A stretch of DNA of 64,000 nucleotides from Acidobacteriota bacterium (GCA_035471925.1 DATIPO010000203.1:15426-79425), one strand, 5' to 3'; shown: positions 63 through 59,273, counted from the first letter of the stretch. Numbers and translations are program-made. Notes: generated from the sequence alone by a model not told the origin.

Positions 63-2522
63 ATGTTCCAGAGATCATTGGAGGATGTTCGGCTGGCTTG
101 TCGGGCGCTGCTTCGGCGGCCTGCCGTCACGCTGCTGGCCGTGTTGACATTGTCGCTGGGGCTGGGCGCGGGGACGCTCGTCTTCAGCGTGACCAGCCAC
201 GTGCTGCTCAACCCTCTCCCCTACGACGAACCCGGACGACTGGTCATGATGTGGAACCGGTTCCCGCGTCAGGAATTGGATCGGGCAGCTTTCTCCGGTC
301 CCGAAATCATGGATTTGCGGGAGTTGGAGGACGTCTTTCAAGGCGTAGCGGCGATTTGGCAGCGATATGGCAGCTTCGGCGACGGAGAGGGCGACCCGGA
401 GCAGGTCCACATTGGCTGGGTGACCCACGACTTTTTTCCAGTGCTGGGCGCATCGCCCGCTCTGGGTCGTCACTTTGAAGCCTCCGACGACGTACGCGGA
501 GCGCCGCCTGTCATCCTTTTGTCGCACCGTATCTGGAGCAGCCGCTACGCCTCTGATCCCGATATCGTGGGCAAGTCGGTGCTTTATAACGGCGAGCCGA
601 TCACGGTTGTCGGCGTGATGCCCAAGGACTTCCGCGTCCTGCTGCCGGCGGACGCCTCCATCCCCAGCCGTTTGGACGCCTGGCTTCCCTGGGGCGGCGG
701 ATACGAAGAGATGTCGCGCGGTTTCCACCGCTTCAGCGTCATCGGACGCCTGCGCCCCGGCGTGTCCCTGCAAGAGGCCCGCCAGCAGGTGGCCGCCATG
801 AGCAGCCGGGTGGAAGCCGAGGAGGCAGCCTACACCCGTTCAGGATACGCCGTCGATGTCGAGCCCCTCCACGGAGACTTGGTGGCGCCCGTGCGGCAAC
901 CGCTCATGGCGCTCATCGGAACCGTCTTCCTGGTCCTGCTTATCGCCTGCGCCAATGTGGCCAACCTGCTGCTGGTGCGCGCGGCCTCGCGTGAATCCGA
1001 GATCGCTCTGCGGGCCGCGCTGGGCGCCTCGCGCTTCCGGCTCCTGCGGCTTTTTTGGACCGAGTCGCTGATACTGGCCGCGGTATCCTGCGCCTTGGCG
1101 GCTTCTCTGGTGTGGGCCGGACTCCTGGTCATCCGCTCGGCCTCCATCAGCGCCTTGCCGCGTCCCGAGGCCATCGAGATGAACTGGACGGTCCTGGCCT
1201 TCGCGCTAGGCGCGTCCTTGCTCAGCAGCCTGGTCTTCGGCAGCGCTCCGGCTCTTCAGGGAGCGCGGGTGGAACTGGTGCAGGCCCTCAAGCAGGGCAC
1301 GCGGTCCTCGCGGGGAATGGGCCTGATGCGCAAGGGCATCCTGGGCATCGAAATGGCGCTTTGCGTCCTGCTCTTGATTGGAGCCGGGCTACTCCTGCGC
1401 AGCTTCGACAACCTTCGCAACGTCGACGGCGGCGTTCATCCCCACAACGTCCTGACGCTGAAGCTTTCGCTCCCCTTCACCCGTTACTTCTACAGCCAAC
1501 CGGTTCCCATCATCGACTTCTACAAAGGGCTTTCGGAGGCTGTCTCTGAGATGCCCGGCGTGCGGACAGCGGGCTTGACCAACTTTCTGCCTCTCAGCGG
1601 CGTCAGCAACTGGGAAGATCCTTACAGCTATGACACGCCGGACGGCCCCCTCGAGTGGGGCGCGGCCTCAGCCGACTACCGCATCGTCACCCCCGAGTAT
1701 CTGTCGGCGGTGGGAACCCGGCTGCTGCAGGGACGGTTCTTCGACCGCCAAGACGATCTTGAGCACCCGCTGGTGGCTCTTGTCGATGAGGAACTGGCCG
1801 CCCGCGCCTGGCCCGACGAATCGCCCCTGGGCCAGCGCCTGCGCGTTAACCGCTTCCTCAACGGCAGCTACTCTCCCGAGTGGGCGCAGGTGGTTGGAGT
1901 GGTGGAAAGCGTCCGCTCTCACGGGCTGGAGATGGAGGCCGTGGGGACGCTCTATCTCCCCCATGCCCAGTCGCCCCTGCGCAGCATGGCTCTTGCAGTC
2001 CAGACCGAGGCCGGGGCCTCGCAAGGCCTGGTGGAATCGATCCGTGAAGCGGTGCTGGAGCAGGACGCCCTGTTGCCGATCTTCGACGTCCTTCCCATGC
2101 AGCGCTACATGGAGCAGGCCCAGAGCCGTCTTCGACTGGTCTTCCTTCTGGTTCTCTCCTTCGCTCTGCTGGCACTAACGTTGGCCGCCGCCGGAACCTA
2201 CGGAGTGATGTCGTTCATCGTCCGCAACTCGACCCGCGAGATCGGCATCCGAGCCGCTTTGGGCGCCGACCGGCTGCGCATCTTGCGCTGGGCTTCCTCG
2301 CGCTGCTTGGTCCCTGCCTTCTGGGGGATCGCGGCTGGCGCGGCGGCCGCATTCCTGCTGGGCATGTCGTTCTCGGACCTGCTCTTTCAGGTCTCCCCCG
2401 GCGATCCCATGACCTATGTCGCCTGCTGCCTGCTGGCCCTGACCGTAGCGCTGGCGGCCACCTTCCGTCCCGCTTTGCGCGCGGCCTCCATCCATCCCTC
2501 CCAAGCCCTGCGCAGCGAATGA
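63..2522 (+). CDS. FtsX/MacB-like ABC transporter permease, 'ADOP' type (two MacB periplasmic domains plus two FtsX 4-TM domains)
   Basis: 819 aa. N-terminal conserved ADOP leader (LRRPAVTLLAVLTLSLGLGAGTLVFSV), two FtsX-like TM blocks, typical C-terminus ...IHPSQALRSE. Confidence 0.8.
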   Translation: MFQRSLEDVRLACRALLRRPAVTLLAVLTLSLGLGAGTLVFSVTSHVLLNPLPYDEPGRLVMMWNRFPRQELDRAAFSGPEIMDLRELEDVFQGVAAIWQRYGSFGDGEGDPEQVHIGWVTHDFFPVLGASPALGRHFEASDDVRGAPPVILLSHRIWSSRYASDPDIVGKSVLYNGEPITVVGVMPKDFRVLLPADASIPSRLDAWLPWGGGYEEMSRGFHRFSVIGRLRPGVSLQEARQQVAAMSSRVEAEEAAYTRSGYAVDVEPLHGDLVAPVRQPLMALIGTVFLVLLIACANVANLLLVRAASRESEIALRAALGASRFRLLRLFWTESLILAAVSCALAASLVWAGLLVIRSASISALPRPEAIEMNWTVLAFALGASLLSSLVFGSAPALQGARVELVQALKQGTRSSRGMGLMRKGILGIEMALCVLLLIGAGLLLRSFDNLRNVDGGVHPHNVLTLKLSLPFTRYFYSQPVPIIDFYKGLSEAVSEMPGVRTAGLTNFLPLSGVSNWEDPYSYDTPDGPLEWGAASADYRIVTPEYLSAVGTRLLQGRFFDRQDDLEHPLVALVDEELAARAWPDESPLGQRLRVNRFLNGSYSPEWAQVVGVVESVRSHGLEMEAVGTLYLPHAQSPLRSMALAVQTEAGASQGLVESIREAVLEQDALLPIFDVLPMQRYMEQAQSRLRLVFLLVLSFALLALTLAAAGTYGVMSFIVRNSTREIGIRAALGADRLRILRWASSRCLVPAFWGIAAGAAAAFLLGMSFSDLLFQVSPGDPMTYVACCLLALTVALAATFRPALRAASIHPSQALRSE

Positions 2523-4370: not shown

Positions 4371-4709
4371 ATGGCCCAGCGGACATCTTTAGGAGAGTTT
4401 GAACAGATGGTGTTGCTGGCGGTGCTGCACTTGGATGAAGAGGCCTACGGGAACGCGATTTGCGAGGCCATCGAAGAGAGGACGCGCAGAGCGGTTTCGC
4501 GCAGCTCGTTGTATGTCACGTTCGACCGGCTGGAGGCCAAGGGGTTCCTCAAGTCAAGGCTGGCTGATTCCAGCGCCGAGCGTGGAGGGCGTCCCCGGCG
4601 CTATGTCGAGGTGACGGCTCAGGGCCTCGCCTCGCTGGCCGAGTCACGCCAAGCCCTTTTGAGCATGTGGAGAGGGCTGGAAGACGTGCTGGAGGAGGCG
4701 AGTTCGTGA
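4371..4709 (+). CDS. PadR family transcriptional regulator
   Basis: 112 aa winged-helix PadR signature (LLAVLHLDEEAYGNAICEAIEERT...SLYVTFDRLEAKGFL). Immediately precedes an ADOP permease, the arrangement usual in Acidobacteria. Confidence 0.8.
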   Translation: MAQRTSLGEFEQMVLLAVLHLDEEAYGNAICEAIEERTRRAVSRSSLYVTFDRLEAKGFLKSRLADSSAERGGRPRRYVEVTAQGLASLAESRQALLSMWRGLEDVLEEASS

Positions 4710-7636
4710 CCCCAGCACGCCATCCAGAGAATTCACCTCATCCGCCCCGCTTGGCGGTGTGGCTGTTGGAACGCTGCATCAGGCGCGAACCGGCCCGCTC
4801 CGGTGTGGTGGGCGATCTCTTCGAGGACTACCGGCATCTGCGCGACCGCCTGGGACGTTGGAGGTCAGACGGGTGGTTCTGGCAGCAGTCCTTCGCCATC
4901 AGTGCAAAATACCTGTTGGCTCGGGACAGACTGCCACGGACGGCTTCCCGCCCGCCCGCCCCGGTCCGCCAGGCCAAGTCTCAGCGGGCCAGAGAAAGGA
5001 GAACCCTCGTGCCCAAGAATCTTATCCTCGATCTCCGTCAGGCCCTTCGCTCCTTGGCCAGGACTCCGACTTTGACCCTGGCGGCAGTCTTGGTGGCGGG
5101 ACTGGCCGTCGGGGCCAACGTGGCGGTCTTCAGCTTGCTCAACGCGGCCTACTTTCGTCCGCTGCCGTTTCCCGCGGCTGAGCAGCTTGTCATGGTTTGG
5201 AATCTCACTCAGGAAGGCGAGACCGACAACATTTCTCCAGCCGACTTTCTCGACTGGCGGCGGGAAAACCGCGTTTTCGAGAGTCTGGCGGCCTACCACA
5301 GCGCCAGCTTCAATCTGACCGGACGTGGCCAGCCCTTGCGCTTGGAGGGGTATCGGGTTTCGGGAGAATTCTTCCAGACCTTGGCGACTCCCGCGATGAT
5401 GGGACAGCCTTTTGGCCAGTCCTCTGACAGGCCCGGGGCGGAGCCGGTCGTGGTGCTCAGCTATGGATTCTGGCAGAACCGCCTGGGCGGCGACACGGGA
5501 GTGGTCGGCCAGTCCCTGAACCTCAACGGGACGCCCCACACGGTGACGGCGGTCATGCCGGCCGAGTTCCGTTTCCCCCACCCTCAGGCCAAGTTGTGGG
5601 TGCCGCTGGCCCTGACGCCGGAGCAGCGTGAGCAGCGGAGCTCTTTTTATTTGATCGGCGTGGGACGGCTGGCCGCGGATGTTTCAGCCGCTCAAGGCGA
5701 AGAGGCCATGGTGGCTCTCAATGGCCGCATCCAGCAGGAGCACTCGCCCGACGAGGACTCATCGGTGGTCCTGCAGCCGCTGCGCGAGAACTGGGCCGGA
5801 GATTCGGGGGCCGCGGCCCTCTTGCTGCAAGGCGCCGTGCTGCTGATCCTGCTGGCGGCCGGCGTCAACATCGCTCACGTCCAGCTTTCCCGTGCGCTGG
5901 GAAAGCGCAGGGAAGTGGCGACCCGGCTGGCCCTGGGGGCCGGACGGGGACGGGTGTTCCTGCAGCCCTTGATGGAAAGCTTCTTGATCACTCTCGGTGC
6001 AGCGGTGGTCGGTTTGGCGCTGGCGCTCATCGCCATTCCGATCTCCTTGAGGTTTCTAGCGGACGAGCCGACTTGGTCGGCGGACATCCACATCGACGGG
6101 ACGGTAGTGGCCTTTACGTTGGCGATCGCGGGCTTGGCCGGAGTCTTGGCAGGACTGGCGCCCGCCCTTCGAGCCCTGCGTTCCGACCCCGCCCGGTCTC
6201 TCACCGAAGACGCACGCGGGGTTGGCCTTTCACGGGGATTCCGCCTGCGCGGACTGCTGGCGGCGGGAGAAGTGTCCTTGGCCCTCATCCTCCTCATCGC
6301 CGCCGGACTCTTGGTCCGCACCACCCTCCACCTCCTGTCGCTTGATCTCGGCTTCCAGCACCGAGGTCTCCTCAGCCTGCGCATGGACCCGCCCGAATCG
6401 CGTTACCCTAACGGGCCGGCCCGCCACCAGTTCTACCGACAAGTGCTGGACGAAGTCACAGCCCTTCCCCAAGTCGAGTCGGCCGGATTCACCGCCGGCC
6501 TCCCCTTCACGCTTGCCGGCGGATCGCTGGGCTTCACCGCCGAAGGCATCGAAGTAGCGCCCGACGAGCCCGTCTTCGCCGCCTACCGCGGCGTCAGCGA
6601 AGGCTACCTGCAGACCATGGGCATCCCTCTCCTCAGCGGACGCTACTTCACCCGTGACGACCTGCGCCCCGGACGTGCCGCCGTTATCATCAACCGGGCC
6701 ATGGCCCGCCGTTTCTGGCCTAACGGCGACGCCCTGGGCAAGCGCCTCAAGCTTTTCGGAGAGAACTCCAGCCAGCCTTGGGCCGAGATCGTGGGAATCG
6801 TGGCCAACGTCCGCCGTTTCGACTTGGCCGCCGATCCTCCTCCAGCCTTCTATGCCCCCTACACCCAAGTCCCCATTACCCACTTTACCCCCCGCGACCT
6901 CGCCATCCGTGTTCGTGGACCCGATTCGAGCGGCTCAGGCGCTGGAGATCCACAAGACACGAGCGCGGCATCCGGAATGCCATCCTCTCGCCCGTCATCG
7001 GCAATCCCTTCGAACCCGCCGCAGTCAGAAGCAACCTTGGCCCGTCGGTCTTCGGGAGTTGCTGCGAACCAAACGACTTCCCCGCAAGGTGCATGTCAAG
7101 GACTAAGTCGCCAAGGCCAACTGGCAGCCAGCCCGCTACAGATCGCCGAAGCCGTGCGCCAAGCCATCCGCCGCGTCGATCCTAGTCTGCCGGTCTACAA
7201 CCTGCGTCCCGTGAGCGACATTGTGGACGAGTCCTCCCGCGCCACCCGCTCTCAACTGGCCTTGCTGGGCACCTTCGCAGTCCTGGCCTGCCTTCTCAGT
7301 GCCCTGGGCGTCTACGGAGTCATCGCCCACTCGGTCCGCTCCCGTTCCGCCGAGCTGGGCTTGCGCATGGCCCTCGGCGCCGCCCCTGGGACCATCAAGA
7401 AGTCCATACTTCGCCAGGGCGCCCTCATCGCCTTGACCGGCTTGGCCCTAGGCCTCCCCGCCTCACTGGCCCTGACCCGATTCATCACTTCCTGGCTCCA
7501 CGGCGTCCGCCCCGCCGACTGGCCTACCTACGCCGCCGCCTCCCTCTTTCTGCTGCTCATCGTCCTGGCCGCCAGCTACCTTCCCGCGCGCACTGCCTCC
7601 ACCCTAGATCCCGCCACCACCATGCGGTCTGATTAG
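4706..7636 (+). CDS. FtsX/MacB-like ABC transporter permease, 'ADOP' type, paralog 2, carrying a ~65-aa low-complexity insertion
   Basis: GTG at 4706 overlaps the padR stop (GTGA) with GGAGGAGG 5 bp upstream; the ORF track begins at 4667. Conserved PPRLAVWLLER leader, two FtsX domains. Ser/Pro-rich insert between RVRGPD and LAASPLQIAEAVRQAIRRVDP (~6907-7125). Confidence 0.75.
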   Translation: MTPARHPENSPHPPRLAVWLLERCIRREPARSGVVGDLFEDYRHLRDRLGRWRSDGWFWQQSFAISAKYLLARDRLPRTASRPPAPVRQAKSQRARERRTLVPKNLILDLRQALRSLARTPTLTLAAVLVAGLAVGANVAVFSLLNAAYFRPLPFPAAEQLVMVWNLTQEGETDNISPADFLDWRRENRVFESLAAYHSASFNLTGRGQPLRLEGYRVSGEFFQTLATPAMMGQPFGQSSDRPGAEPVVVLSYGFWQNRLGGDTGVVGQSLNLNGTPHTVTAVMPAEFRFPHPQAKLWVPLALTPEQREQRSSFYLIGVGRLAADVSAAQGEEAMVALNGRIQQEHSPDEDSSVVLQPLRENWAGDSGAAALLLQGAVLLILLAAGVNIAHVQLSRALGKRREVATRLALGAGRGRVFLQPLMESFLITLGAAVVGLALALIAIPISLRFLADEPTWSADIHIDGTVVAFTLAIAGLAGVLAGLAPALRALRSDPARSLTEDARGVGLSRGFRLRGLLAAGEVSLALILLIAAGLLVRTTLHLLSLDLGFQHRGLLSLRMDPPESRYPNGPARHQFYRQVLDEVTALPQVESAGFTAGLPFTLAGGSLGFTAEGIEVAPDEPVFAAYRGVSEGYLQTMGIPLLSGRYFTRDDLRPGRAAVIINRAMARRFWPNGDALGKRLKLFGENSSQPWAEIVGIVANVRRFDLAADPPPAFYAPYTQVPITHFTPRDLAIRVRGPDSSGSGAGDPQDTSAASGMPSSRPSSAIPSNPPQSEATLARRSSGVAANQTTSPQGACQGLSRQGQLAASPLQIAEAVRQAIRRVDPSLPVYNLRPVSDIVDESSRATRSQLALLGTFAVLACLLSALGVYGVIAHSVRSRSAELGLRMALGAAPGTIKKSILRQGALIALTGLALGLPASLALTRFITSWLHGVRPADWPTYAAASLFLLLIVLAASYLPARTASTLDPATTMRSD

Positions 7637-26478: not shown

Positions 26479-29187
26479 CTAAGAGTTGCATTGAGAGGCC
26501 AGGCTGCGGACCGCATCCTCCACTTGACGGGCCGCCAGGCGGGGATCGTCCAGACAGGGGAAACGCAAGGCCGATCCGAAGCACACTCTCACCGGGCCCG
26601 CCTTGGGACGCGAAACATGCTTGTTATAAACTTCGAAGAGTCCCTGCAAGTAGACTGGCACCACCGGAAGCTTCATTTCCATCGCCATTACTCCCACCCC
26701 CGGCCGGAATGCCTGCATCTCCCCGTCCTCGCTGCGGCGTCCCTCGGGAAAGATGAGCGGACAGCATCCTCGTTCCACCAGCAGGCCCGTCCTGCGCAGG
26801 GTCTTGCGTACCCCGCCCATGCGCTGCGGCAGGGGATAGGCATTGAAGAGTCCCCTGGCCAGCAAATAGAACCAAGCGGCCGCCGCGCGCTCTTTGAGCC
26901 CATAGCGCTGGGGAGCGAAGAGCGGCAGGAAGTGCTCCTTGGCCATGGCCGGAGCCAACCGGTATCTCCACGAGAAGGGCAGCGCCAAGGCCACGGCCGG
27001 CGTGTCGAGATGGCTGTTGTGGTTGGCGGCCAGGATGACGGGAGGAGAGAGTTCCCGCAGGTGCTCCAGCCCCTCTATCTGCATGCGGGCCAGTTTCCGG
27101 AAGAGGTGGAAGACGATCAGCTCATCCGCCAGCACGCGCGGGATCTTAATGAGGGGACCGTGCCATCCCCAGAAACGGATTCTCTCCGCAGCTCGGCTTG
27201 ACGGCGGCGTATCCTTGCGGCTGCTCTGGGGCCCAGGCTCCTGACCTGTTTCGGGTTCGGCCGCTTGCTTCCCGTGGCCTTCTCGGGCGCTCTGGTGGCC
27301 GCTTTCTTGGGCCACGGTCCCCAACTCGCCGGCCTGCGCTGCCTCCTCAAAGTCTCCTTCCTGCTCCGGATGCGAGGCGTCCTCTTGAGCTCGCAGGGAG
27401 CGCAGCCAGGCACGCAATTGGCCCACGGTTTCCAGTTGAGCGAAACGTTCTTCGTCTAAACGAACGCGGTAGGCCTCCTCCAGGGCTGCCATCAGCTCGA
27501 TGCGGTCGAGTGAGGAAAGACCGAGGTGGCGCTCCAAGCTGGTTTCGTCGCGGAGGGACGAAGAGGGCTGTCCGCTGATGCGCTGCAGGGCCTGTTCCAG
27601 GGCCGAGCCTTGGGGAGATGTCGTGGTGGGGCCTTGCATCTGGCGTCCTACCGCTTCGGCCACTTTGCGGCGCTGCACTTTGAGCGTGGAGGAGGTGCGG
27701 GGGAAGTCCTCATCAGGCCACACCGACCAACTGCGGACGCGCTGATGGGATTCCAGCCGCGAGTTGGCCCGCTGCACGGCTTGCGACAGATCGGCCCCGG
27801 CTTGGACGGGAATGATGGCGGCGTGCACCAGTTCGGCGCCCTGGCTCTTGCGCGCAACCACCACCGCCTCCCGAACTTCGGCCATCTCGTTGAGCATGTC
27901 TTCAACGTCGCCGGGGTGAACGTTGAGCCCTTCCGAAGTGACGATCAGGTCTTTCTTGCGTCCACGGTAGTAGAGCCGTCCTTCCTCGTCGAACTCGCCC
28001 AGATCGCCGGTGTGCAGCCAGCCGTCCTCGGCCACCGTCTGCTTTTCGCCCTCGGCCCCCAGGTATTCGCTGACCACCGAATCGCCCCTGACCAAGATCT
28101 CGCCGTCCTGGCTGAGGCGCACCTGCTGACCCGGAAGGACGCTGCCGATCGAGCCCGCGCGGCTGTGGAAAGGATGGTTGACGGCTACCACAGGAGAGGT
28201 TTCAGTCATGCCATAGCCCTGAACGACGACGTATCCCAGACGTCCCCAAAAGGACTCGATGGAGGCCTCCACTTCGGCACCGCCCACCACCAGGGCCCAG
28301 AACTTCCATCCCAACGCCCGGTGGATTTCCCGGCTGCGCCACCAGCGCTGCAAGATGCCTGTCCAGCCTCCGGCATGGGGACGCGCCTCGGGCACTCGAA
28401 AGCGCTGCTCGATGTGGGACTGCAAAGTCTGGGCGATGCGGGGCACGCACACTAGCGCCGAAACCCGCTCCCGCCGGATGACTCCTGACAGCGAGTCAGG
28501 ATGGAGGTCGTCGCTGAAGACCGCCGCCCCGCCCAGCAGAATCGGAATGAAGAGCCCCAGAGACTGCCCGAACATGTGGCTCAAGGGCAGCAGGTCGAGC
28601 AGGCGGATGGGCTGAAAGGGCCGGGCGTATTTGCGGTAGCGGGCGATTTCACCTTGCAGCGGACGCAGGTTGGAGCAGATGTTGCGGTGGCGGTGAACGA
28701 CTCCCTTGGGTTCGCCGGTTGTGCCCGAGGTGTAGACGATCTCGACGATGTCGTCGGGTTGGGCGGGGACGTAGTCCAATTGCCTGGCCCGCGGTAGATG
28801 GCGGACCTCATCGAGGCACAAGCGGGCCCCGAGTTGGCCGGCGGCTCCCTCGACCCGGCTGCCGTAGAGGAGGATGCGGGCCCCGGTCTGTTCACGAATG
28901 CGGGCCACGAATGAAGGCGAGGATCGGAAATCCAACGGCACGGCCACCGCTCCCCGGCAAAGGCAGGCCCAGAAGGAAGCCGTCCACTCGGGGCGGTTCT
29001 CGCTCCACAGGAGCACCTTGTCGCCGCGTCCCACGCCCTGCGCGCGCAGGTAGGCGGTCATGGATGCGATTTGCTGACGGAGGTGGCCATAGCTCATCCG
29101 CCAAGTGCGGTAACCGTTGAAGTAGCGGATCGCTTCGCGGCCGCTGAGGGGGCCGGTCTGATCGAGAAGATCAAGCAGAGTCTGCAT
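26479..29187 (-). CDS. tri-domain fusion: AMP-dependent acyl-CoA/ACP synthetase, acyl-carrier (PP-binding) domain, and 1-acyl-sn-glycerol-3-phosphate acyltransferase (LPLAT/PlsC) domain
   Basis: AMP-binding motif YTSGTTGEPKGV plus GYGMTETS; carrier LGLSSLDRIELMAALEE; acyltransferase HNSHLD (HX4D) and FPEGRRS motifs. 902 aa. Confidence 0.75.
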   Translation of the reverse strand: MQTLLDLLDQTGPLSGREAIRYFNGYRTWRMSYGHLRQQIASMTAYLRAQGVGRGDKVLLWSENRPEWTASFWACLCRGAVAVPLDFRSSPSFVARIREQTGARILLYGSRVEGAAGQLGARLCLDEVRHLPRARQLDYVPAQPDDIVEIVYTSGTTGEPKGVVHRHRNICSNLRPLQGEIARYRKYARPFQPIRLLDLLPLSHMFGQSLGLFIPILLGGAAVFSDDLHPDSLSGVIRRERVSALVCVPRIAQTLQSHIEQRFRVPEARPHAGGWTGILQRWWRSREIHRALGWKFWALVVGGAEVEASIESFWGRLGYVVVQGYGMTETSPVVAVNHPFHSRAGSIGSVLPGQQVRLSQDGEILVRGDSVVSEYLGAEGEKQTVAEDGWLHTGDLGEFDEEGRLYYRGRKKDLIVTSEGLNVHPGDVEDMLNEMAEVREAVVVARKSQGAELVHAAIIPVQAGADLSQAVQRANSRLESHQRVRSWSVWPDEDFPRTSSTLKVQRRKVAEAVGRQMQGPTTTSPQGSALEQALQRISGQPSSSLRDETSLERHLGLSSLDRIELMAALEEAYRVRLDEERFAQLETVGQLRAWLRSLRAQEDASHPEQEGDFEEAAQAGELGTVAQESGHQSAREGHGKQAAEPETGQEPGPQSSRKDTPPSSRAAERIRFWGWHGPLIKIPRVLADELIVFHLFRKLARMQIEGLEHLRELSPPVILAANHNSHLDTPAVALALPFSWRYRLAPAMAKEHFLPLFAPQRYGLKERAAAAWFYLLARGLFNAYPLPQRMGGVRKTLRRTGLLVERGCCPLIFPEGRRSEDGEMQAFRPGVGVMAMEMKLPVVPVYLQGLFEVYNKHVSRPKAGPVRVCFGSALRFPCLDDPRLAARQVEDAVRSLASQCNS

Positions 29188-30991: not shown

Positions 30992-31540
30992 ATGGAGTAC
31001 GAGGACGACCAATTGGTGGCGCAGATCCTGCGCGGCTCTGACTTGGCCTTCGAGCGGCTGATGAGGCGCTACGAACGCTTGGTCTTCACGGTCGCCTACG
31101 GCTACGTGGGCTGTCCCGAGCAGGCCATGGACGTGGTCCAAAACGTCTTTCTGAAAGCCCACCGAAAACTAAAATCCTACGCCGCCGGCGGACGCTTCAA
31201 AGCTTGGCTGATGCGCATCGCCGCCAACGAGAGCCTGAACTGGATCCGCTCTCAGAAACGACATCGCCATGATGCCCAAGTGCGCGAAGACATCTCTCCG
31301 GCGCCTCAGCCGGGACAGGAGCGGCTGATCATGCAACGGCAAAGAAGGGAATTGCTCTTGAGCTGCCTCAACCGGCTCAATCCGCGCCAGCGCTCAGCCG
31401 TCGTGCTTCGCTACTTCGAGGATCTGCCCATCCGCGAGATCGCGGCCTTGCTGGAATGCAGTGAGGGAGTCGCCAAGAACATCCTCTTCCGCAGCCTCAA
31501 GAAAATGCGCGAAGACGTGGCCCAAAGGGAGGCCTGCTGA
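30992..31540 (+). CDS. ECF (sigma-70 family, group IV) RNA polymerase sigma factor
   Basis: Region 2 (FERLMRRYERLVFTVAYGYVG...DVVQNVFLKAH) and region 4 (LPIREIAALLECSEGVAKNILFRSLKKM). Confidence 0.8.
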   Translation: MEYEDDQLVAQILRGSDLAFERLMRRYERLVFTVAYGYVGCPEQAMDVVQNVFLKAHRKLKSYAAGGRFKAWLMRIAANESLNWIRSQKRHRHDAQVREDISPAPQPGQERLIMQRQRRELLLSCLNRLNPRQRSAVVLRYFEDLPIREIAALLECSEGVAKNILFRSLKKMREDVAQREAC

Positions 31541-32526
31541 TGACATCCTGCTCAGACTTTGAAGACCTGTTTCAGTCGCTTCTGGCCGGAGAACAACTCA
31601 GCCAAAAGCACCTCGAAGATCTTGAGGGCCATGCCCGCCAGTGTCCCCAGTGCCGGGGTCTGCTGGAGCTGCACCGGGAACTGGGCCAGCAAGGGGCCGA
31701 TTTGGCGGGTGTGTCCGAAAGCCGCTTCGCTTCCATGCGCCGCCGGGTTCTGGCCCAGACCGCGGGTAAGACAAAGGCCGCCGCAGCAAGCGCATTCGAG
31801 GATCCGGCGGCGGCCCGGCAAGCGGAAGCTTCGAGACCTCGACGCTACTCGCCGGCTTGGGCTGTTGCAGCCGGATTGCTGCTCCTGCTGGGAGGCGCCT
31901 TGCTGGGGCGGATGTCAGTTGCCGAAGCACCCTTCCAGAACCTCGCAGGAATGTCCCAGGATCCCTCTCTGATCCGCGAAATCAGCCAGGAAGCTGAAGG
32001 CAACGACGATTTCTCCGATGCCGAAGACTCGCCCTTCATCTATTCGGACGTGAAATTCCGCCCCTTGGATGACGGGCAGGTCGCTCTCAGCTTCAACGTG
32101 GCCCGCCATGTCGAAGTGATCGAACCCGTCGACTCGCCTTTGGTCAAGGAGGTCCTCGTGCAGTCGCTGCTGGTGCGCGGCGAATCAGAGTCGCTGGGCT
32201 CGCGCCTCAAGGCTGTTTCGCTGGCGTCCCAGACCATGGACCCCAAGGTGCGGCAGGCTCTGACCTTCGCCATGCATCACGACGACAGTCTGGCCGTGCG
32301 CCAGAAAGCCCTGTCCATTCTCGCCGAACTCCCCGTGGACGCCGACCTGGAGGAAGCCTTGTTGCAGACGCTGCGCGAGGACCCCTCGGTGCAGATGCGT
32401 CTGCTGGCGCTGGAAGTGATGGGACGCCGTGAGATGGACTCGGAGACGCTGCGCGAGGCCATTAGCGAATTGGAGCAGCGGGGCGACCGGGCTCTTCTAC
32501 TCAAAGCCACCGAATTCCGCCAATGA
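31540..32526 (+). CDS. anti-sigma factor (zf-HC2 type, single TM, C-terminal HEAT/ARM-like repeats)
   Basis: HARQCPQCRGLLELH zinc-finger anti-sigma motif; TM WAVAAGLLLLLGGALLG. Start overlaps the sigma factor stop (ATGA). Confidence 0.65.
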   Translation: MTSCSDFEDLFQSLLAGEQLSQKHLEDLEGHARQCPQCRGLLELHRELGQQGADLAGVSESRFASMRRRVLAQTAGKTKAAAASAFEDPAAARQAEASRPRRYSPAWAVAAGLLLLLGGALLGRMSVAEAPFQNLAGMSQDPSLIREISQEAEGNDDFSDAEDSPFIYSDVKFRPLDDGQVALSFNVARHVEVIEPVDSPLVKEVLVQSLLVRGESESLGSRLKAVSLASQTMDPKVRQALTFAMHHDDSLAVRQKALSILAELPVDADLEEALLQTLREDPSVQMRLLALEVMGRREMDSETLREAISELEQRGDRALLLKATEFRQ

Positions 32527-32589
32527 CGGCGCTTTTGGATCGAATTTGAACACACCTACATTTAACCGAAATAGACGGAGGAGAAAGCC

Positions 32590-33765
32590 ATGATGAACTT
32601 GAAACGATGGACCTTAACCGCACCGATAGGGGTGCTCATCCTATTGCTGTCGGCGGCCTTGCCGCTGATGGCCCAGCAGCAGAAGAGCCTTAACGCCTCG
32701 CCTGGGCAGATCCTGATACTCGATTTGCAGGCGGGAGGCTCGGCCCGGGTGACCGGCTGGGACCGCAACCAGGTCCTGGTCAGCTATGATGTGCGCGATG
32801 GCCGGCCCTCGGACTTCAACATCGAGATCGAGGAGACCTCTCAAGGCGTGCTCGTTCATTCCGAATATGTGGGCTCGTCGCGGACCTGGTCGAGCAATAT
32901 GAGCTACGACATCCGTGTACCCCGCCAGTACAACATCGAACTTGACTCCATGGGCGGCGGACTGTCGGTGAACGACGTGGAAGGCCGCTTCACGGGCAAG
33001 ACCATGGGCGGCGAGCTCAACTTCCGCAACGTGCGGGGAGAAGCCGACATGAAGACCATGGGCGGCGAAATCCACTTGGAGGACTCCGACCTCGACGGGA
33101 CGCTCAAGACCATGGGCGGCGAGGTGCTGCTGAAGAACGTCACGGGCGACGTGACGGGCAGTTCGATGGGCGGCAACGTCCGCTATGTCAACGTCCGCCG
33201 CCGGGACGGCTCGCTGGCCGGACCCAAGGGAACTTCCGGCGTCCCGGCCACTCCTGAGACCGTACAGATCTCGACCATGGGCGGCAAGATCGATGTCGAC
33301 GAGGCCCCCGCCGGAGCTTCCGTGCGCACCATGGGCGGAGACATCGACATCCGCAGCGCCTCGCGCTTCACCCGCGCGCGCACGCTGGGCGGCGACGTCT
33401 ACGTCGAATCCCTGGACGGATGGGTGGAGGCTGGGACCAACGGCGGCGATGTCGAGGTGCACGTCCTGGGTACGGGAGGCGACCAGCACATCGACCTGAC
33501 TTCCCTGTCCGGCGACATTATCCTCTATCTCCCGGCTGATTTCTCGGCCGACTTCGATCTGGAAATCGCCTATACCCGCGACAGCGGAAAGCGTTACCGG
33601 GTCATCAGCGACTTCGGCATCCGTCAGCGCAGCGATACGGGCCAATGGGATTACTCCAAGGGCAGTCCCCGCAAGTACATCCTGGGAAGCGGTTCGGTCA
33701 ACGGGGGAGCCAACCCGGTCCGCATCAAGACCATCAACGGCAACATCACCATTCGCCAGCAGTGA
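32590..33765 (+). CDS. secreted DUF4097-like ('toast-rack' / putative adhesin) beta-helical repeat protein
   Basis: Signal peptide plus more than 8 degenerate repeats of the K/RTMGGE(L/I)... unit, the recurring TMGG-D/E-I/V motif typical of DUF4097. This gene-order position downstream of an ECF sigma/anti-sigma pair is common for the family. Confidence 0.6.
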   Translation: MMNLKRWTLTAPIGVLILLLSAALPLMAQQQKSLNASPGQILILDLQAGGSARVTGWDRNQVLVSYDVRDGRPSDFNIEIEETSQGVLVHSEYVGSSRTWSSNMSYDIRVPRQYNIELDSMGGGLSVNDVEGRFTGKTMGGELNFRNVRGEADMKTMGGEIHLEDSDLDGTLKTMGGEVLLKNVTGDVTGSSMGGNVRYVNVRRRDGSLAGPKGTSGVPATPETVQISTMGGKIDVDEAPAGASVRTMGGDIDIRSASRFTRARTLGGDVYVESLDGWVEAGTNGGDVEVHVLGTGGDQHIDLTSLSGDIILYLPADFSADFDLEIAYTRDSGKRYRVISDFGIRQRSDTGQWDYSKGSPRKYILGSGSVNGGANPVRIKTINGNITIRQQ

Positions 33766-34026
33766 ACTGGCTGTTTCCTCATCTACAGGGCTGACCGATC
33801 TCTGCACAAGATCCTTGGCATGATCGGTCAGCCCGTCCTTCAGACCCGCCTGACCACCCGACTGAAGAGCTTGGCCAAGCCGCTCAAAGTCCCGCCTGTC
33901 CCCGCTTCCCGCCGGATTGCTCGTGAAGCATGCCTTGCCTAGGCTGCGGTTGCGCTATTGCATTAAGCAATGAGCCTGGGAATCGGAGGGCGTAGTTTCC
34001 GGGTTCGAACTCAAGGAGCAATCACC

Positions 34027-34410
34027 ATGAAGGACAAGACCAATCTCTACTCTCTGCTCATGCTGTGTCTGCTGGCCGCGGTGACCGCCGTGGGCGTGCT
34101 GACCGTGGCCCAACCGGCTGAAGCCGCCATTGGCGGCGGCTGGGACTGCCCCACCGCCAACTGCTCAGGCGGTTTTTTTACGGCCCAATCGTGGGGCAAG
34201 GCCTCCGACTGTCAGACGGCGCGGTCCAGGTGCACCTTGGGTGTCTACGGAGACGCTCACCGCATCTGCGAAAAAAAGATCACCTCCAACGGCGAGCCCT
34301 GCGATTTCCAGCCCATCAGTTACAGCAACTGCTACTGGTCGAACGGAATGTGGGTCGTCGACTGCGTCATGCAGCACCGCTGTGAGATCTGCCAGTTCTC
34401 GCTGAGCTAA
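34027..34410 (+). CDS. small secreted cysteine-rich protein (12 Cys in a ~95-aa mature region)
   Basis: AAGGAG RBS 9 nt upstream of ATG 34027. Signal peptide MKDKTNLYSLLMLCLLAAVTAVGVLTVAQPAEA, then a Cys-rich body (CPTANC...CEIC). No recognised family. Confidence 0.5.
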   Translation: MKDKTNLYSLLMLCLLAAVTAVGVLTVAQPAEAAIGGGWDCPTANCSGGFFTAQSWGKASDCQTARSRCTLGVYGDAHRICEKKITSNGEPCDFQPISYSNCYWSNGMWVVDCVMQHRCEICQFSLS

Positions 34411-34424
34411 GCTGAGCCCGTCGT

Positions 34425-34446
34425 GGGAGGGGAGCCGTCCCCTCCC
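34425..34446. terminator. bidirectional stem-loop (GGGAGGGGA-gccg-TCCCCTCCC) between convergent genes
   Basis: Perfect 9-bp GC-rich stem immediately after the Cys-rich gene stop and before the convergent Rieske gene end. No clear T-tract, so the intrinsic-terminator call is tentative. Confidence 0.4.
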
Positions 34447-34506
34447 GCGACCCTGCTTCCAGACTTGTGCCCGCGAAGTTCGAGGGCCGCTGACCGCAAG
34501 CTGAAC

Positions 34507-34920
34507 CTAACCGGCGGCAGATTCCGGACGGGAAACGATGACTTGATCCTCCTCGACTCTCACCGGGAAGCTCTGTAAAGGGACAACGGGAGGACCGCCC
34601 ACAATGCGGCCCTGCAAGTCGAAACGCCCGTCGTGACAAGGGCAGAAAAGATCTCGCTGTTGAGACCGGAATTCCACCGTGCAGCGGCCATGGGTGCAGT
34701 CGGCGGCCACGGCATAGTAGCGTCCGGGCGTGGCGTGCACGAGAAGAGCCAGGACGTGTCCGTAGCGGAACTTCTTGGAGGAGCCGGGGGCGACTTCGCC
34801 CACTTGGGCGGCTACCACCTGTCGGGGAAGCTGGGGAGGTCCGCAGGCGGCCGCCGCGGCCGAGCCCACTACGAGCTGGAGAAGACGCCGCCTGGGAATT
34901 TCGCGTTTGGAATCTGACAT
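34507..34920 (-). CDS. Tat-secreted Rieske [2Fe-2S] domain protein
   Basis: Twin-arginine leader MSDSKREIPRRRLLQLVVGSAAAAA; Rieske boxes CTHGRC and CPCHDGRF. Confidence 0.75.
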   Translation of the reverse strand: MSDSKREIPRRRLLQLVVGSAAAAACGPPQLPRQVVAAQVGEVAPGSSKKFRYGHVLALLVHATPGRYYAVAADCTHGRCTVEFRSQQRDLFCPCHDGRFDLQGRIVGGPPVVPLQSFPVRVEEDQVIVSRPESAAG

Positions 34921-35105
34921 GCCCGCATTGTAACCAATGACGCTACGCAAGCAGGGCTTCTCGTGCTGGCTCCGGGGCTGTCGTACCCTCATCTCCGTTC
35001 AAGCCGGGCTGCTTCCCGCTCTTACGGTGGCCCTGGTTCTCCCGCGCTCAGAAAGACGGATCAATGAGGTTGCCCTCCGTTCTCTCTGCGGCTCGCCGGC
35101 ACCGG

Positions 35106-37499: not shown

Positions 37500-37764
37500 C
37501 GGCAGGGCGGTTATCCCCTCCATTGTGCGATTTGCCCCAGGGCACGCCCGAGCCCGAACTGGGGAGCCGCGATGCTGGAAGCGGTAGACACCGCCAATGT
37601 TTCATTGCCGCCGCTCCGCATGACCAGCATCGGCTTGTCCTCGTCAGTCTTGCCTGGCCTTTCGCCCGTTTCTGTCGGGCACCCCTTCACGCCGTAATGG
37701 CTCCATGATTGCTTGCCTGTTTCTTGGGTTACTCAAGACACTATTGCTCCCGAGGAGGAGCCTC

Positions 37765-38457
37765 ATGAGATATTCGAAATTGCTCGCCTGTTCGTTGTTC
37801 GCGATGGCCTTGGCGCTCTCGCTGATCGTCGTGGCAGCCCAGTCCGAGGGTAAGGCCTGCCCCTATCAGCCGACCGTCCAGCAAGAGCAGCCGCAGGCGC
37901 AGCCTGCACAGGGCCGGCCCATGTACGGAAGACAAGGCCAGGGGCAACGGCATCGTCACGGACAGGGCCATCATGGACAGGGCGCGGGTCAACGCTGCGA
38001 TAATCCCAATTGCCAACACCGCGGAGCGGGTCCAGGCCAATGTCCGGATTGTCCTCAGGGGATGATGAACGATCCTGACCATCAGGACTTCCGCTTCTTG
38101 CTCGACAACCGCCAAGCCATCGACCGCCAAGTGCACCAGTTGGAGAATGGGGTGGAGACTCTGACCGAGTCAGACGATCCTCAGGTGGCGGCCCGCATAC
38201 GCAAGCATGTCAGGGCCATGTACCAGCGCCTCGAAGAGGGGCGTCCGATCCATGCCCGTGACCCGCTTTTCGCCGAAATCTTCCGCCATGTCGACCAGAT
38301 CGACCTGGAAATGGAGGACACTGAGAAGGGGATCCGCGTGCGGGAGACCGCGGCCGATCCGCAAGTGGTCAAGCTCATCAAGGCCCACGCCGAGGTGGTC
38401 AACCTCTTCATCGAGAACGGCCACGCCGAGATGCACCGCAATCACGAGGTGCCCTGA
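37765..38457 (+). CDS. secreted protein with a His/Gly/Gln-rich, Cys-containing N-terminal region and a helical C-terminal domain
   Basis: Signal peptide MRYSKLLACSLFAMALALSLIVVAAQSEG, then ...GQGQRHRHGQGHHGQGAGQRCDNPNCQHRGAGPGQCPDCPQG... GAGGAGG RBS. Confidence 0.5.
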   Translation: MRYSKLLACSLFAMALALSLIVVAAQSEGKACPYQPTVQQEQPQAQPAQGRPMYGRQGQGQRHRHGQGHHGQGAGQRCDNPNCQHRGAGPGQCPDCPQGMMNDPDHQDFRFLLDNRQAIDRQVHQLENGVETLTESDDPQVAARIRKHVRAMYQRLEEGRPIHARDPLFAEIFRHVDQIDLEMEDTEKGIRVRETAADPQVVKLIKAHAEVVNLFIENGHAEMHRNHEVP

Positions 38458-57970: not shown

Positions 57971-58124
57971 GCTTTTTTCCTCTGCTGGGCCGACATGGCC
58001 CTTATGTTAGCAGGAAGGCGTCAGGGGACGCTGTTTTCAGAAAATGAGCCGTGGGTGTGAGGGGAACCGCCAAGCAGCAACGTTGATTGAGGTTGAACAA
58101 GTACCTCCCACTTGGATGCAGTCG

Positions 58125-58157
58125 AAAAAGGGCCTCCTCCCCTCGAGGCCCTTTTTC
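58125..58157. terminator. bidirectional intrinsic-terminator-like hairpin (AAAAA-GGGCCTC-loop-GAGGCCC-TTTTT) in the 5' region of the ABC operon
   Basis: 7-bp GC stem flanked by an A5 and a T5 run. It sits between divergent gene starts, which argues for a leader or attenuator or a small RNA rather than a gene-end terminator. Confidence 0.4.
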
Positions 58158-58247
58158 ATTGGTCCTGAGAAACCGCCGGTCCAGAACAGTGCTGGTCCTG
58201 AAAAGCCGCCCTCCCGGTCGCTCGGCCTCTATAATGGCCTGGAAAAC

Positions 58248-59273
58248 ATGGCTGCCAACCTCGATACCCACTCAGATCTGGATACCGTTCCGGTGGTCTC
58301 CCGGGAGTCTCGTCCCCTTCTCGGGACCCACCACCTCAGCAAAAGCTTCGGCAAAGTTCGGGCTGTGGACGACCTCTCCATTTCGGTTCCTCCGGGCAAG
58401 ATCTACGGCTTTCTGGGACGCAACGGAGCCGGGAAGACCACCACTCTGCGCATGCTGATGGGAATCATCAGGCCCGACCAAGGCCAGATCGAATTGGACG
58501 CCCAGCGCTTCCAGCGCATCGGCAACGCTCAGAAGCGCTCCATCGGATACGTGTCGCAGGAGCAGTATTTCTATCCCTGGATGACCTGCGCCGCCATCGG
58601 CAAGTTCGTGTCGGGCTTTTATCCCACCTGGGACGAGGCCGAATACGGGCGACTGACAGGACTGCTGGAGCTGCCCCCTGAACGCAAGATCTCGGCTCTC
58701 TCCGGCGGCATGAAAGTCAAGCTGGCGCTGGCCTTGGCCCTGGCCCACCGTCCGCGGCTGCTGGTGCTGGACGAACCCACGTCAGGACTCGATCCTTACG
58801 CCCGCCGCGAGTTTCTCGACATGATCGCCGGCCAGGCCCGCAAGTACGGACGCACTACCCTCTTTTCGTCGCACATCATCGAGGAGGTGGAACGGGTGGC
58901 CGACTTGGTGGGCATCATTCACGACGGACGGCTACTTTACGAGGGCGATCTGCCGACCCTCAAGCGCTCCGTGCGCCGCCTGGTTCAGCCGCCGCCGCAA
59001 TCCGAACAGCCTTGGGACGACACTTCGGCCGACACCATGGGAGCCGGCTTGGACGCTCCCGACGCCGCCCCCCAGGAGGAAGAACTGCACCGGCCCATCC
59101 TTGACGATCTGGAAGTGTTACGCGACACCACCCTGCCCAACGGCAGCCGCGAAATGGTGCTCTTCGGCAATCCCCACACTTGGGAGCAGTGGCGCATCCC
59201 GCCTTCGCGCACCGAAGACATGTCCCTGGAGGACATTTTCATCGCTCTGACCGGGAAAAGGCCTGAGCTATGA
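58248..59273 (+). CDS. ABC transporter ATP-binding protein (ABC-2/DrrA-like) with a ~110-aa C-terminal extension
   Basis: Walker A GRNGAGKTT, signature LSGGMKVKLALALAL, Walker B LLVLDEPTSGLD, H-loop. Start at ATG 58248 (MAANLD); the ORF-track start at 58044 adds an unlikely leader. Confidence 0.8.
   Translation: MAANLDTHSDLDTVPVVSRESRPLLGTHHLSKSFGKVRAVDDLSISVPPGKIYGFLGRNGAGKTTTLRMLMGIIRPDQGQIELDAQRFQRIGNAQKRSIGYVSQEQYFYPWMTCAAIGKFVSGFYPTWDEAEYGRLTGLLELPPERKISALSGGMKVKLALALALAHRPRLLVLDEPTSGLDPYARREFLDMIAGQARKYGRTTLFSSHIIEEVERVADLVGIIHDGRLLYEGDLPTLKRSVRRLVQPPPQSEQPWDDTSADTMGAGLDAPDAAPQEEELHRPILDDLEVLRDTTLPNGSREMVLFGNPHTWEQWRIPPSRTEDMSLEDIFIALTGKRPEL

Follow-up and report, generated by a model that had tools for sequence, protein, structure and literature searches.

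A 64,000-nt stretch of DNA from an Acidobacteriota bacterium (GCA_035471925.1, DATIPO010000203.1:15426-79425; hereafter the window) carries a cysteine-rich gene at 34027-34410 on the plus strand. We read it, with a probability of roughly 0.55, as an autonomous monocistronic gene for a Sec-exported, disulfide-stabilized, and probably nonenzymatic binding protein. The structural and genetic parts of this description we hold to be highly probable. The functional part, a stable soluble binding protein that is inhibitor-like or associated with the envelope and acts in the periplasm or outside the cell, is a tentative proposal. Small exported disulfide-stabilized proteins are a known general kind, within which the protein represents a sequence family that is new.

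The coding sequence (stop codon at 34408-34410 included) specifies a 127-aa precursor. A Shine-Dalgarno sequence, AAGGAG (34014-34019, plus strand), lies about 7-8 nt 5′ of the ATG at 34027, and the upstream regions of homologous genes contain (A)AGGAG at the same spacing. A longer open reading frame (ORF) starting at 33970 was considered and set aside as the less likely choice, because it is the internal ATG that follows the Shine-Dalgarno sequence and because homologues begin at the equivalent methionine. The GC content at third codon positions (0.78) is similar to that of neighboring genes, and 34027-34410 is a genuine gene. Residues 1-33 (34027-34125) form a putative Sec-type signal peptide: the basic n-region is MKDK, the hydrophobic core spans 20 residues, and an AQPAEA-A segment follows with a predicted AEA/A cleavage site and no lipobox. 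This N-terminal architecture is the same in 21 of 21 aligned homologues. Signal peptidase I would cut after Ala33 to release a mature protein of 94 residues. A sequence-only reading of the window had described a secreted protein of about 95 residues with 12 cysteines in its mature part. The predicted length and the Sec-like signal peptide agree with this description, but we count 10 cysteines in the mature protein; an eleventh is located in the signal peptide.

Homologues were sought with a word-indexed search over 5.8 billion proteins, an exhaustive phmmer search over 1.84 billion representatives, and two profile iterations. The word-indexed search returned a near-identical copy (P0001) as its sole match, and phmmer added six small homologues with 36-48% identity. 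Four giant or repetitive phmmer matches (P0002, of 5236 aa, P0006, P0008, and P0009) were discarded, their scores being inflated by repeats. With the profile searches, the family grew to about 29 clusters, whose members measure 103-137 aa, lack any Pfam domain, and are either unnamed or labeled "hypothetical protein"; the window protein matches the family profile with E-values of 2.4e-25 to 1.4e-32. Curated resources gave nothing comparable. Neither the Pfam nor the PADLOC scan of the window protein and the 21 aligned members gave a match (for Pfam, none above threshold), the NCBIfam scan of the window protein was negative, and PDB sequence profile searches returned nothing below an E-value of 0.35. 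The best Pfam candidate, the Paramecium surface antigen domain (PF01508), reached 12 bits (E = 0.31) against a gathering threshold of 21.2 bits in only one of the 21 members and was rejected. A literature search found nothing relevant to the family. The earlier statement that the protein has no recognizable family is thus borne out for curated resources, and the profile searches uncovered no homology to a known family; they also made clear that the protein is not unique, given the roughly 29 unannotated clusters.

The family is rare; its members known so far are all unannotated metagenomic ORFs and lie on Acidobacteria-like contigs. Scanning the GTDB species representatives with the cysteine-rich protein gave no relative, tblastn against plasmid and phage collections gave no match to the family, and when six-frame translations of the window and of all loci were screened with a family hidden Markov model (HMM), the window yielded no additional paralogue. 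The ratio of nonsynonymous to synonymous substitution rates (dN/dS) is 0.14-0.24 in four pairs that include both paralogues and orthologues, and the family is under purifying selection. Tandem paralogue pairs occur on two unrelated contigs (L004, 8001-9171, and L013, 8001-8973), with 72% and 70% amino acid identity and dS of about 1.0-1.4, and every copy is preceded by a separate upstream region of some 280-480 bp. A strain variant was also recovered: L016, a 950-bp contig from Logan accession SRR31012004, corresponds to window positions 33504-34453 with 98.8% identity. Its gene differs from that of the window by four synonymous changes, no missense change, and one nonsense change (TCG to TAG at codon 125) that removes the last three residues, SLS. 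Judged from this premature stop, the tail after C122-Q-F is dispensable.

As a separate observation, a second small exported cysteine-rich ORF (L008, 8294-8668, plus strand; 124 aa with 10 cysteines after its signal peptide) was noted some 1 kb downstream of P0013, a family member. Its segment VGATCPKAQ resembles the family segment WGMGATCAAA, but only weakly (E = 0.055 in a very small database), and the 21-sequence family HMM did not pick up this ORF.

The mature domain (34126-34407, plus strand) has the cysteine pattern Cx4Cx15Cx6Cx11Cx10Cx9Cx10Cx5Cx2C. Nine columns are invariant in the 21-sequence alignment, namely eight cysteines (C46, C62, C69, C81, C92, C102, C113, and C119, in precursor numbering) and one tryptophan (W56). 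Together with the signal peptide, an approximately 80-aa domain of the form C-x(9-11)-W-x5-C-x6-C-x11-C-x(4-10)-C-x(8-10)-C-x(7-11)-C-x5-C makes up the family signature, and the window protein aligns to it over its full mature length with every invariant column present. An AlphaFold2 model built from the family alignment has a mean predicted local distance difference test score (pLDDT) of 78.5, with values of about 97 for residues 50-120 and low values only at the termini and in the signal peptide, where a helical segment is modeled. The model places strands at 51-59, 103-105, and 108-121 and a long helix at 62-84, so that the core is confidently predicted to be a compact β-α-β-β two-layer sandwich. 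On this model, the fold is a common small α/β sandwich, and it is the sequence family that is new to curated resources.

In the mechanism that we propose, the 94-aa domain would be oxidized in the periplasm to form four conserved disulfides, which would pin both the loops and the long helix (C62, C69, and C81) to the sheet (C102, C113, and C119). The two remaining cysteines of the window protein, C41 and C122, are lineage-specific. An extra N-terminal and an extra C-terminal cysteine occur together in the window protein, P0007, P0024, and P0025, and this paired occurrence suggests a fifth disulfide, C41-C122, that would tie the termini together in the lineage of the window protein. The invariant residues are only structural ones (Cys, Trp, and Gly) and the surface is variable; for this reason, the protein is most likely not an enzyme, and the mature form would act as a very stable soluble binding protein. 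By analogy, it may resemble other small periplasmic proteins that stand alone, for instance inhibitors of hydrolases or β-α-β-β proteins of the Lpp20, RcsF, and YdgH type.

The same cysteines could instead serve as thiolate ligands in a periplasmic metal- or redox-active protein, be it metallothionein-like, a Cu or Zn chaperone, an Fe-S protein, or a site of heme attachment. We consider this very unlikely. The CxxC motif of the window protein (C119-E-I-C122) and its Cx4C motif are specific to its lineage and not conserved in the family, and there is no CxxCH motif, no conserved histidine, and no Fe-S spacing. The eight conserved cysteines are even in number and, in the predicted compact fold, are spread over helix, strands, and loops as expected for structural disulfides. 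Sec export would also deliver the protein into an oxidizing compartment, the gene neighbors are not conserved, and no Pfam metal-binding family matched.

The gene occupies its own interval between two strong hairpins. Upstream, on the same strand, lie genes for an extracytoplasmic function (ECF) sigma factor (30992-31540), an anti-sigma factor with an HxxxCxxC (ZAS-like) motif and C-terminal HEAT repeats (31540-32526), and a DUF4097 toastrack protein (32590-33765), which form a three-gene operon (30992-33765). The intergenic region that follows measures 261 bp, in line with the 260 bp given by the sequence-only reading, and contains a stem-loop at 33788-33834 (plus strand). Its arms, GGGCTGACCGATC at 33788-33800 and GATCGGTCAGCCC at 33822-33834, are complementary at 13 of 13 positions, around a 21-nt loop region; the 11-bp perfect repeat reported before is therefore real and in fact longer. 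The hairpin has a folding energy of −34.5 kcal/mol (z = −6.8). By our own arithmetic, about 0.03 perfect 13-bp inverted repeats with a spacer of at most 30 nt are expected per 64 kb, and two occur in the window. Downstream, a GC-rich stem-loop (34420-34451) begins 10 nt after the stop codon, between the cysteine-rich gene and a convergent Rieske gene on the minus strand. It is stable as well (−34 kcal/mol, z = −5.7), and its stem is of 14 bp with 93% complementarity rather than the 9 bp first noted. When the 3′ ends of about 40 genes of the window are compared, these two hairpins are the most stable, the upstream one ranking first and the downstream one second. The L016 variant has one difference in each hairpin region, at 33819 between the 13-bp arms and at 34437 in the downstream loop, and leaves the paired arms untouched. 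An Rfam scan of the region and of the whole window found no RNA family, and there were no tRNAs.

The most economical reading of both hairpins is that they are transcription terminators or RNA-stabilizing 3′ structures. The upstream one lies 23 nt past the toastrack stop codon and about 190 nt before the cysteine-rich ATG. What had been taken for a regulator of the cysteine-rich gene is, in this position, better read as terminating the preceding operon than as an operator, and it probably insulates the gene from read-through. In a Thermoanaerobaculia metagenome-assembled genome (MAG), L001, where the operon is kept, the toastrack gene likewise has a hairpin right after its stop codon. The downstream hairpin is probably a bidirectional terminator that would stop both the cysteine-rich and the convergent Rieske transcripts. 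The cysteine-rich gene would then be transcribed from a putative promoter of its own within the approximately 190 nt between hairpin and ATG. This interval contains an AT-rich imperfect palindrome, ATTGCATTAAGCAAT (33957-33971), 56-70 nt upstream of the ATG, with 5-bp arms (ATTGC/GCAAT) and a 5-nt centre. Previously placed at about 33955-33969 and singled out as a feature, it is at chance level: its fold has z = −0.65, 44 of 200 shuffles fold equally well, and by our own arithmetic a few 5+5 palindromes with spacers of 0-10 nt are expected per 260 bp. The upstream regions of three homologues were scanned as well, and in two of them σ70-like promoters were seen (TTGACC-18-TATAAT in L008 and TTGATG-17-TATACT in L007), situated about 120 nt and about 50 nt from the ATG, respectively. 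The AT-rich palindrome patch of the window falls within this 50-120 nt range and may be part of a promoter region. The view of the locus as an independently regulated module thus holds in part: the gene is an isolated unit between strong hairpins and its homologues stand alone, but a regulatory role of the inverted repeat finds no support.

Another perfect 13-bp inverted repeat, at 58124-58157 (GAAAAAGGGCCTC-N8-GAGGCCCTTTTTC), has A/T-run flanks and resembles a classical bidirectional intrinsic terminator. It falls inside a listed ORF (58044-59273) whose ABC_tran domain begins only at residue 109, so that the true start of this ORF is probably downstream of the hairpin.

Several points weigh against an insulated monocistronic gene whose product is fully locked by disulfides. 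Neither hairpin is followed by a U-tract, and a scan of the upstream region of the window gene for σ70-type promoters returned no candidate that passes. Several family members, moreover, have nine cysteines after the likely cleavage site, and this odd number makes a free thiol or an intermolecular disulfide possible in them.

The lack of a σ70 consensus upstream, together with the position directly downstream of the ECF sigma, anti-sigma, and toastrack genes on the same strand, would fit a different arrangement, in which the cysteine-rich gene is an output of this envelope-stress module, expressed from an ECF-type promoter or through transcription that runs on from the operon. At about 33979-34005, the string GGAAT-N19-GTT bears a loose resemblance to the consensus of ECF promoters. 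Nevertheless, we find such an arrangement quite unlikely. The −34.5 kcal/mol hairpin separates the operon from the gene, and the operon travels without it: in L001 (6113-9059), whose toastrack protein is 45% identical and is the best relative among GTDB species representatives, the operon is followed by PadR and ADOP permease genes, with no family member at the syntenic site. A GAAACCT motif is found about 40-55 nt upstream of the sigma start codon in both the window and L001. This candidate autoregulatory promoter does not recur upstream of the cysteine-rich gene, a comparison of the two regions showed no shared motif, and the GGAAT-N19-GTT string is unlike it. Among homologues, none of nine contexts has an ECF or toastrack neighbor, and the two σ70-like promoters described above likewise speak against it.

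These nine independent contexts (L002/3, L004/5, L006, L007, L008, L009, L010, L011/12, and L013-15) share no conserved neighbor. The homologue genes always stand alone, with intergenic gaps mostly of 150-480 bp, and were duplicated in tandem twice (L004 and L013). An all-versus-all BLAST of neighboring hypothetical ORFs found no mutual similarity and hence no hidden partner. The isolation of the gene, which the sequence-only reading had pointed out, therefore extends from the window to its relatives. A single context offers a side observation: in L010, an NCBI MAG contig, a thioredoxin-fold (AhpC-TSA/Redoxin) gene (549-1097, plus strand) lies 73 bp downstream of the family member at 129-476 and could encode a dedicated thiol-disulfide oxidoreductase.

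ADOP-family permeases (TIGR03434) are duplicated MacB_PCD/FtsX proteins. In four of the nine contexts (L002, L004, L008, and L013/14), the unit next to the family member encodes such a permease; if about 3.6% of genes are taken to be ADOP genes, a rough binomial calculation gives p ~0.02 for direct adjacency, before ADOP clustering is allowed for. The protein could accordingly be a ligand, a substrate, or a periplasmic accessory of these permeases, but we give this little credence. No ADOP gene adjoins the window gene, the nearest being 26 kb away, and five of the nine contexts have none. Where they do occur, their side and orientation vary, the permeases are nonorthologous (25-36% identity), and in L013 a T-run hairpin stands between permease and gene. 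ADOP genes are also clustered and abundant, with three in 12 kb of L004, for example, and the adjacency is probably due to chance. To the bolder version, in which exported proteins locked by disulfides form a hitherto undescribed family, restricted to Acidobacteriota, and work with the ADOP "orphan" permeases as ligand, periplasmic accessory, or substrate, we assign the lowest likelihood of all.

The sequence-only reading had likened the cysteine density of the protein to that of bacteriocin-like or defensin-like peptides and metal-binding modules, and this analogy fails in every feature that could be tested (charge, motif, partners, and CxxC conservation). A secreted antimicrobial, that is, a bacteriocin- or defensin-like toxin exported by Sec against competitors, would be small, secreted, and disulfide-rich, as this protein is. 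A patchy and rare distribution and tandem duplication in two lineages would also suit it, as would the MacB/FtsX-type permeases that adjoin in four of the nine contexts, since permeases of this type can serve as peptide-resistance pumps in other bacteria. We nonetheless judge it unlikely. No immunity, maturation, or transporter partner is conserved in the nine contexts, and the adjacent permeases are nonorthologous ADOP paralogues (25-36% identity) of a kind that is dense in such genomes (two in the window). Rather than being cationic, family members are mostly acidic, with isoelectric points (pI) of 4-5 and net charges of −2 to −9; their core domains, taken from the first conserved cysteine, mostly have a pI of 4.0-5.3, while the window member, unlike most of the family, is neutral (pI 6.9). 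The CxxxC...CxC motif is missing, the domain is twice the size of a defensin, and dN/dS values of 0.14-0.24 carry no arms-race signal. Membership among the bacteriocins specifically was rejected, as linked immunity, transporter, and maturation genes were absent in the nine contexts and no curated bacteriocin model in Pfam or NCBIfam matched.

Two ADOP permease genes elsewhere in the window, at 63-2522 and 4667-7636 on the plus strand (812 and 798 bits), lie within 8 kb and support an Acidobacteriota origin, ADOP being an Acidobacteria-signature family. ADOP genes are also present on several homologue-bearing contigs, and two such contigs come from genomes of 8.8 and 9.3 Mb. Downstream of the cysteine-rich gene, the Rieske gene (34507-34992, minus strand) is followed by genes for a metallophosphoesterase and a solute-binding protein. 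Two further genes drew our attention in their own right. At 37705-38457 (plus strand), a 250-aa predicted exported protein without a Pfam match carries CDNPNC...CPDC motifs (QGQGQRHRHGQGHHGQG...) after a stretch rich in His, Gly, and Gln; from these residues, it may bind metal. At 26479-29187 (minus strand), a 902-aa fusion of AMP-binding, PP-binding (carrier), and acyltransferase domains adjoins a polysaccharide deacetylase gene and may be an acyl-lipid or lipid-remodeling enzyme.

We see the interest of the family in its combination of rarity and a well-defined core: about 29 clusters among 5.8 billion proteins, absent from curated databases, with a core that is confidently predicted. Small exported multidisulfide proteins are far less studied in bacteria than in eukaryotes. 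If a target were found, such as a permease, a component of the envelope, or a hydrolase that it inhibits, the protein would offer a stable new scaffold and insight into the extracytoplasmic biology of large-genome Acidobacteriota. The ADOP permeases have undergone massive expansion in Acidobacteria, and no role is known for them; a partnership with them, if true, would be the first functional handle on these proteins. At the same time, this is one of very many uncharacterized small-protein families, and nothing points to an unusual mechanism.

We finally compared the protein with known systems of similar build. CS-αβ defensins, among them bacterial defensin-like peptides, share with it secretion, cysteine richness, and a helix that is stapled by disulfides to a β-sheet, a feature that is predicted here. 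Those defensins are cationic, measure 35-50 aa with 3-4 disulfides, and pair a CxxxC motif in the helix with a CxC motif in the strand, whereas the present domain measures 80-94 aa in a mostly acidic family and has Cx6Cx11C cysteines in the helix and Cx5C cysteines in the strand; no defensin was among the fold matches listed. The β-α-β-β domains of dodecin and YbjQ (DUF74) are 3-9% identical to the window protein, which does not qualify as a dodecin. Dodecin and YbjQ proteins are cytoplasmic, oligomeric, and cysteine-free and hold flavin or other ligands between their subunits; by our own reading of the model, the invariant Trp of the present family would lie at the junction of strand β1 and the helix, and that of archaeal dodecin at the start of β2. 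The RcsF- and YdgH/BhsA (DUF1471)-type periplasmic stress proteins of Enterobacteria come from a different phylum and are unrelated in sequence. RcsF, unlike the window protein, is a four-cysteine lipoprotein, and for the window protein no evidence of a signaling partner was seen. Secreted proteins of the Lpp20/HP1454 type from Helicobacter (Lpp20 fold) bear a weak fold resemblance, with scores below significance and 8-11% identity. The window protein has no Pfam LPP20 match and, ending its signal peptide in AEA/A, no L-x-x-C lipobox, and a lock of four disulfides is not known from Lpp20 proteins. The protein thus belongs to none of these groups, their testable defining features being absent; by analogy, it would work most like other small exported α/β domains of the Lpp20, RcsF, and YdgH type.
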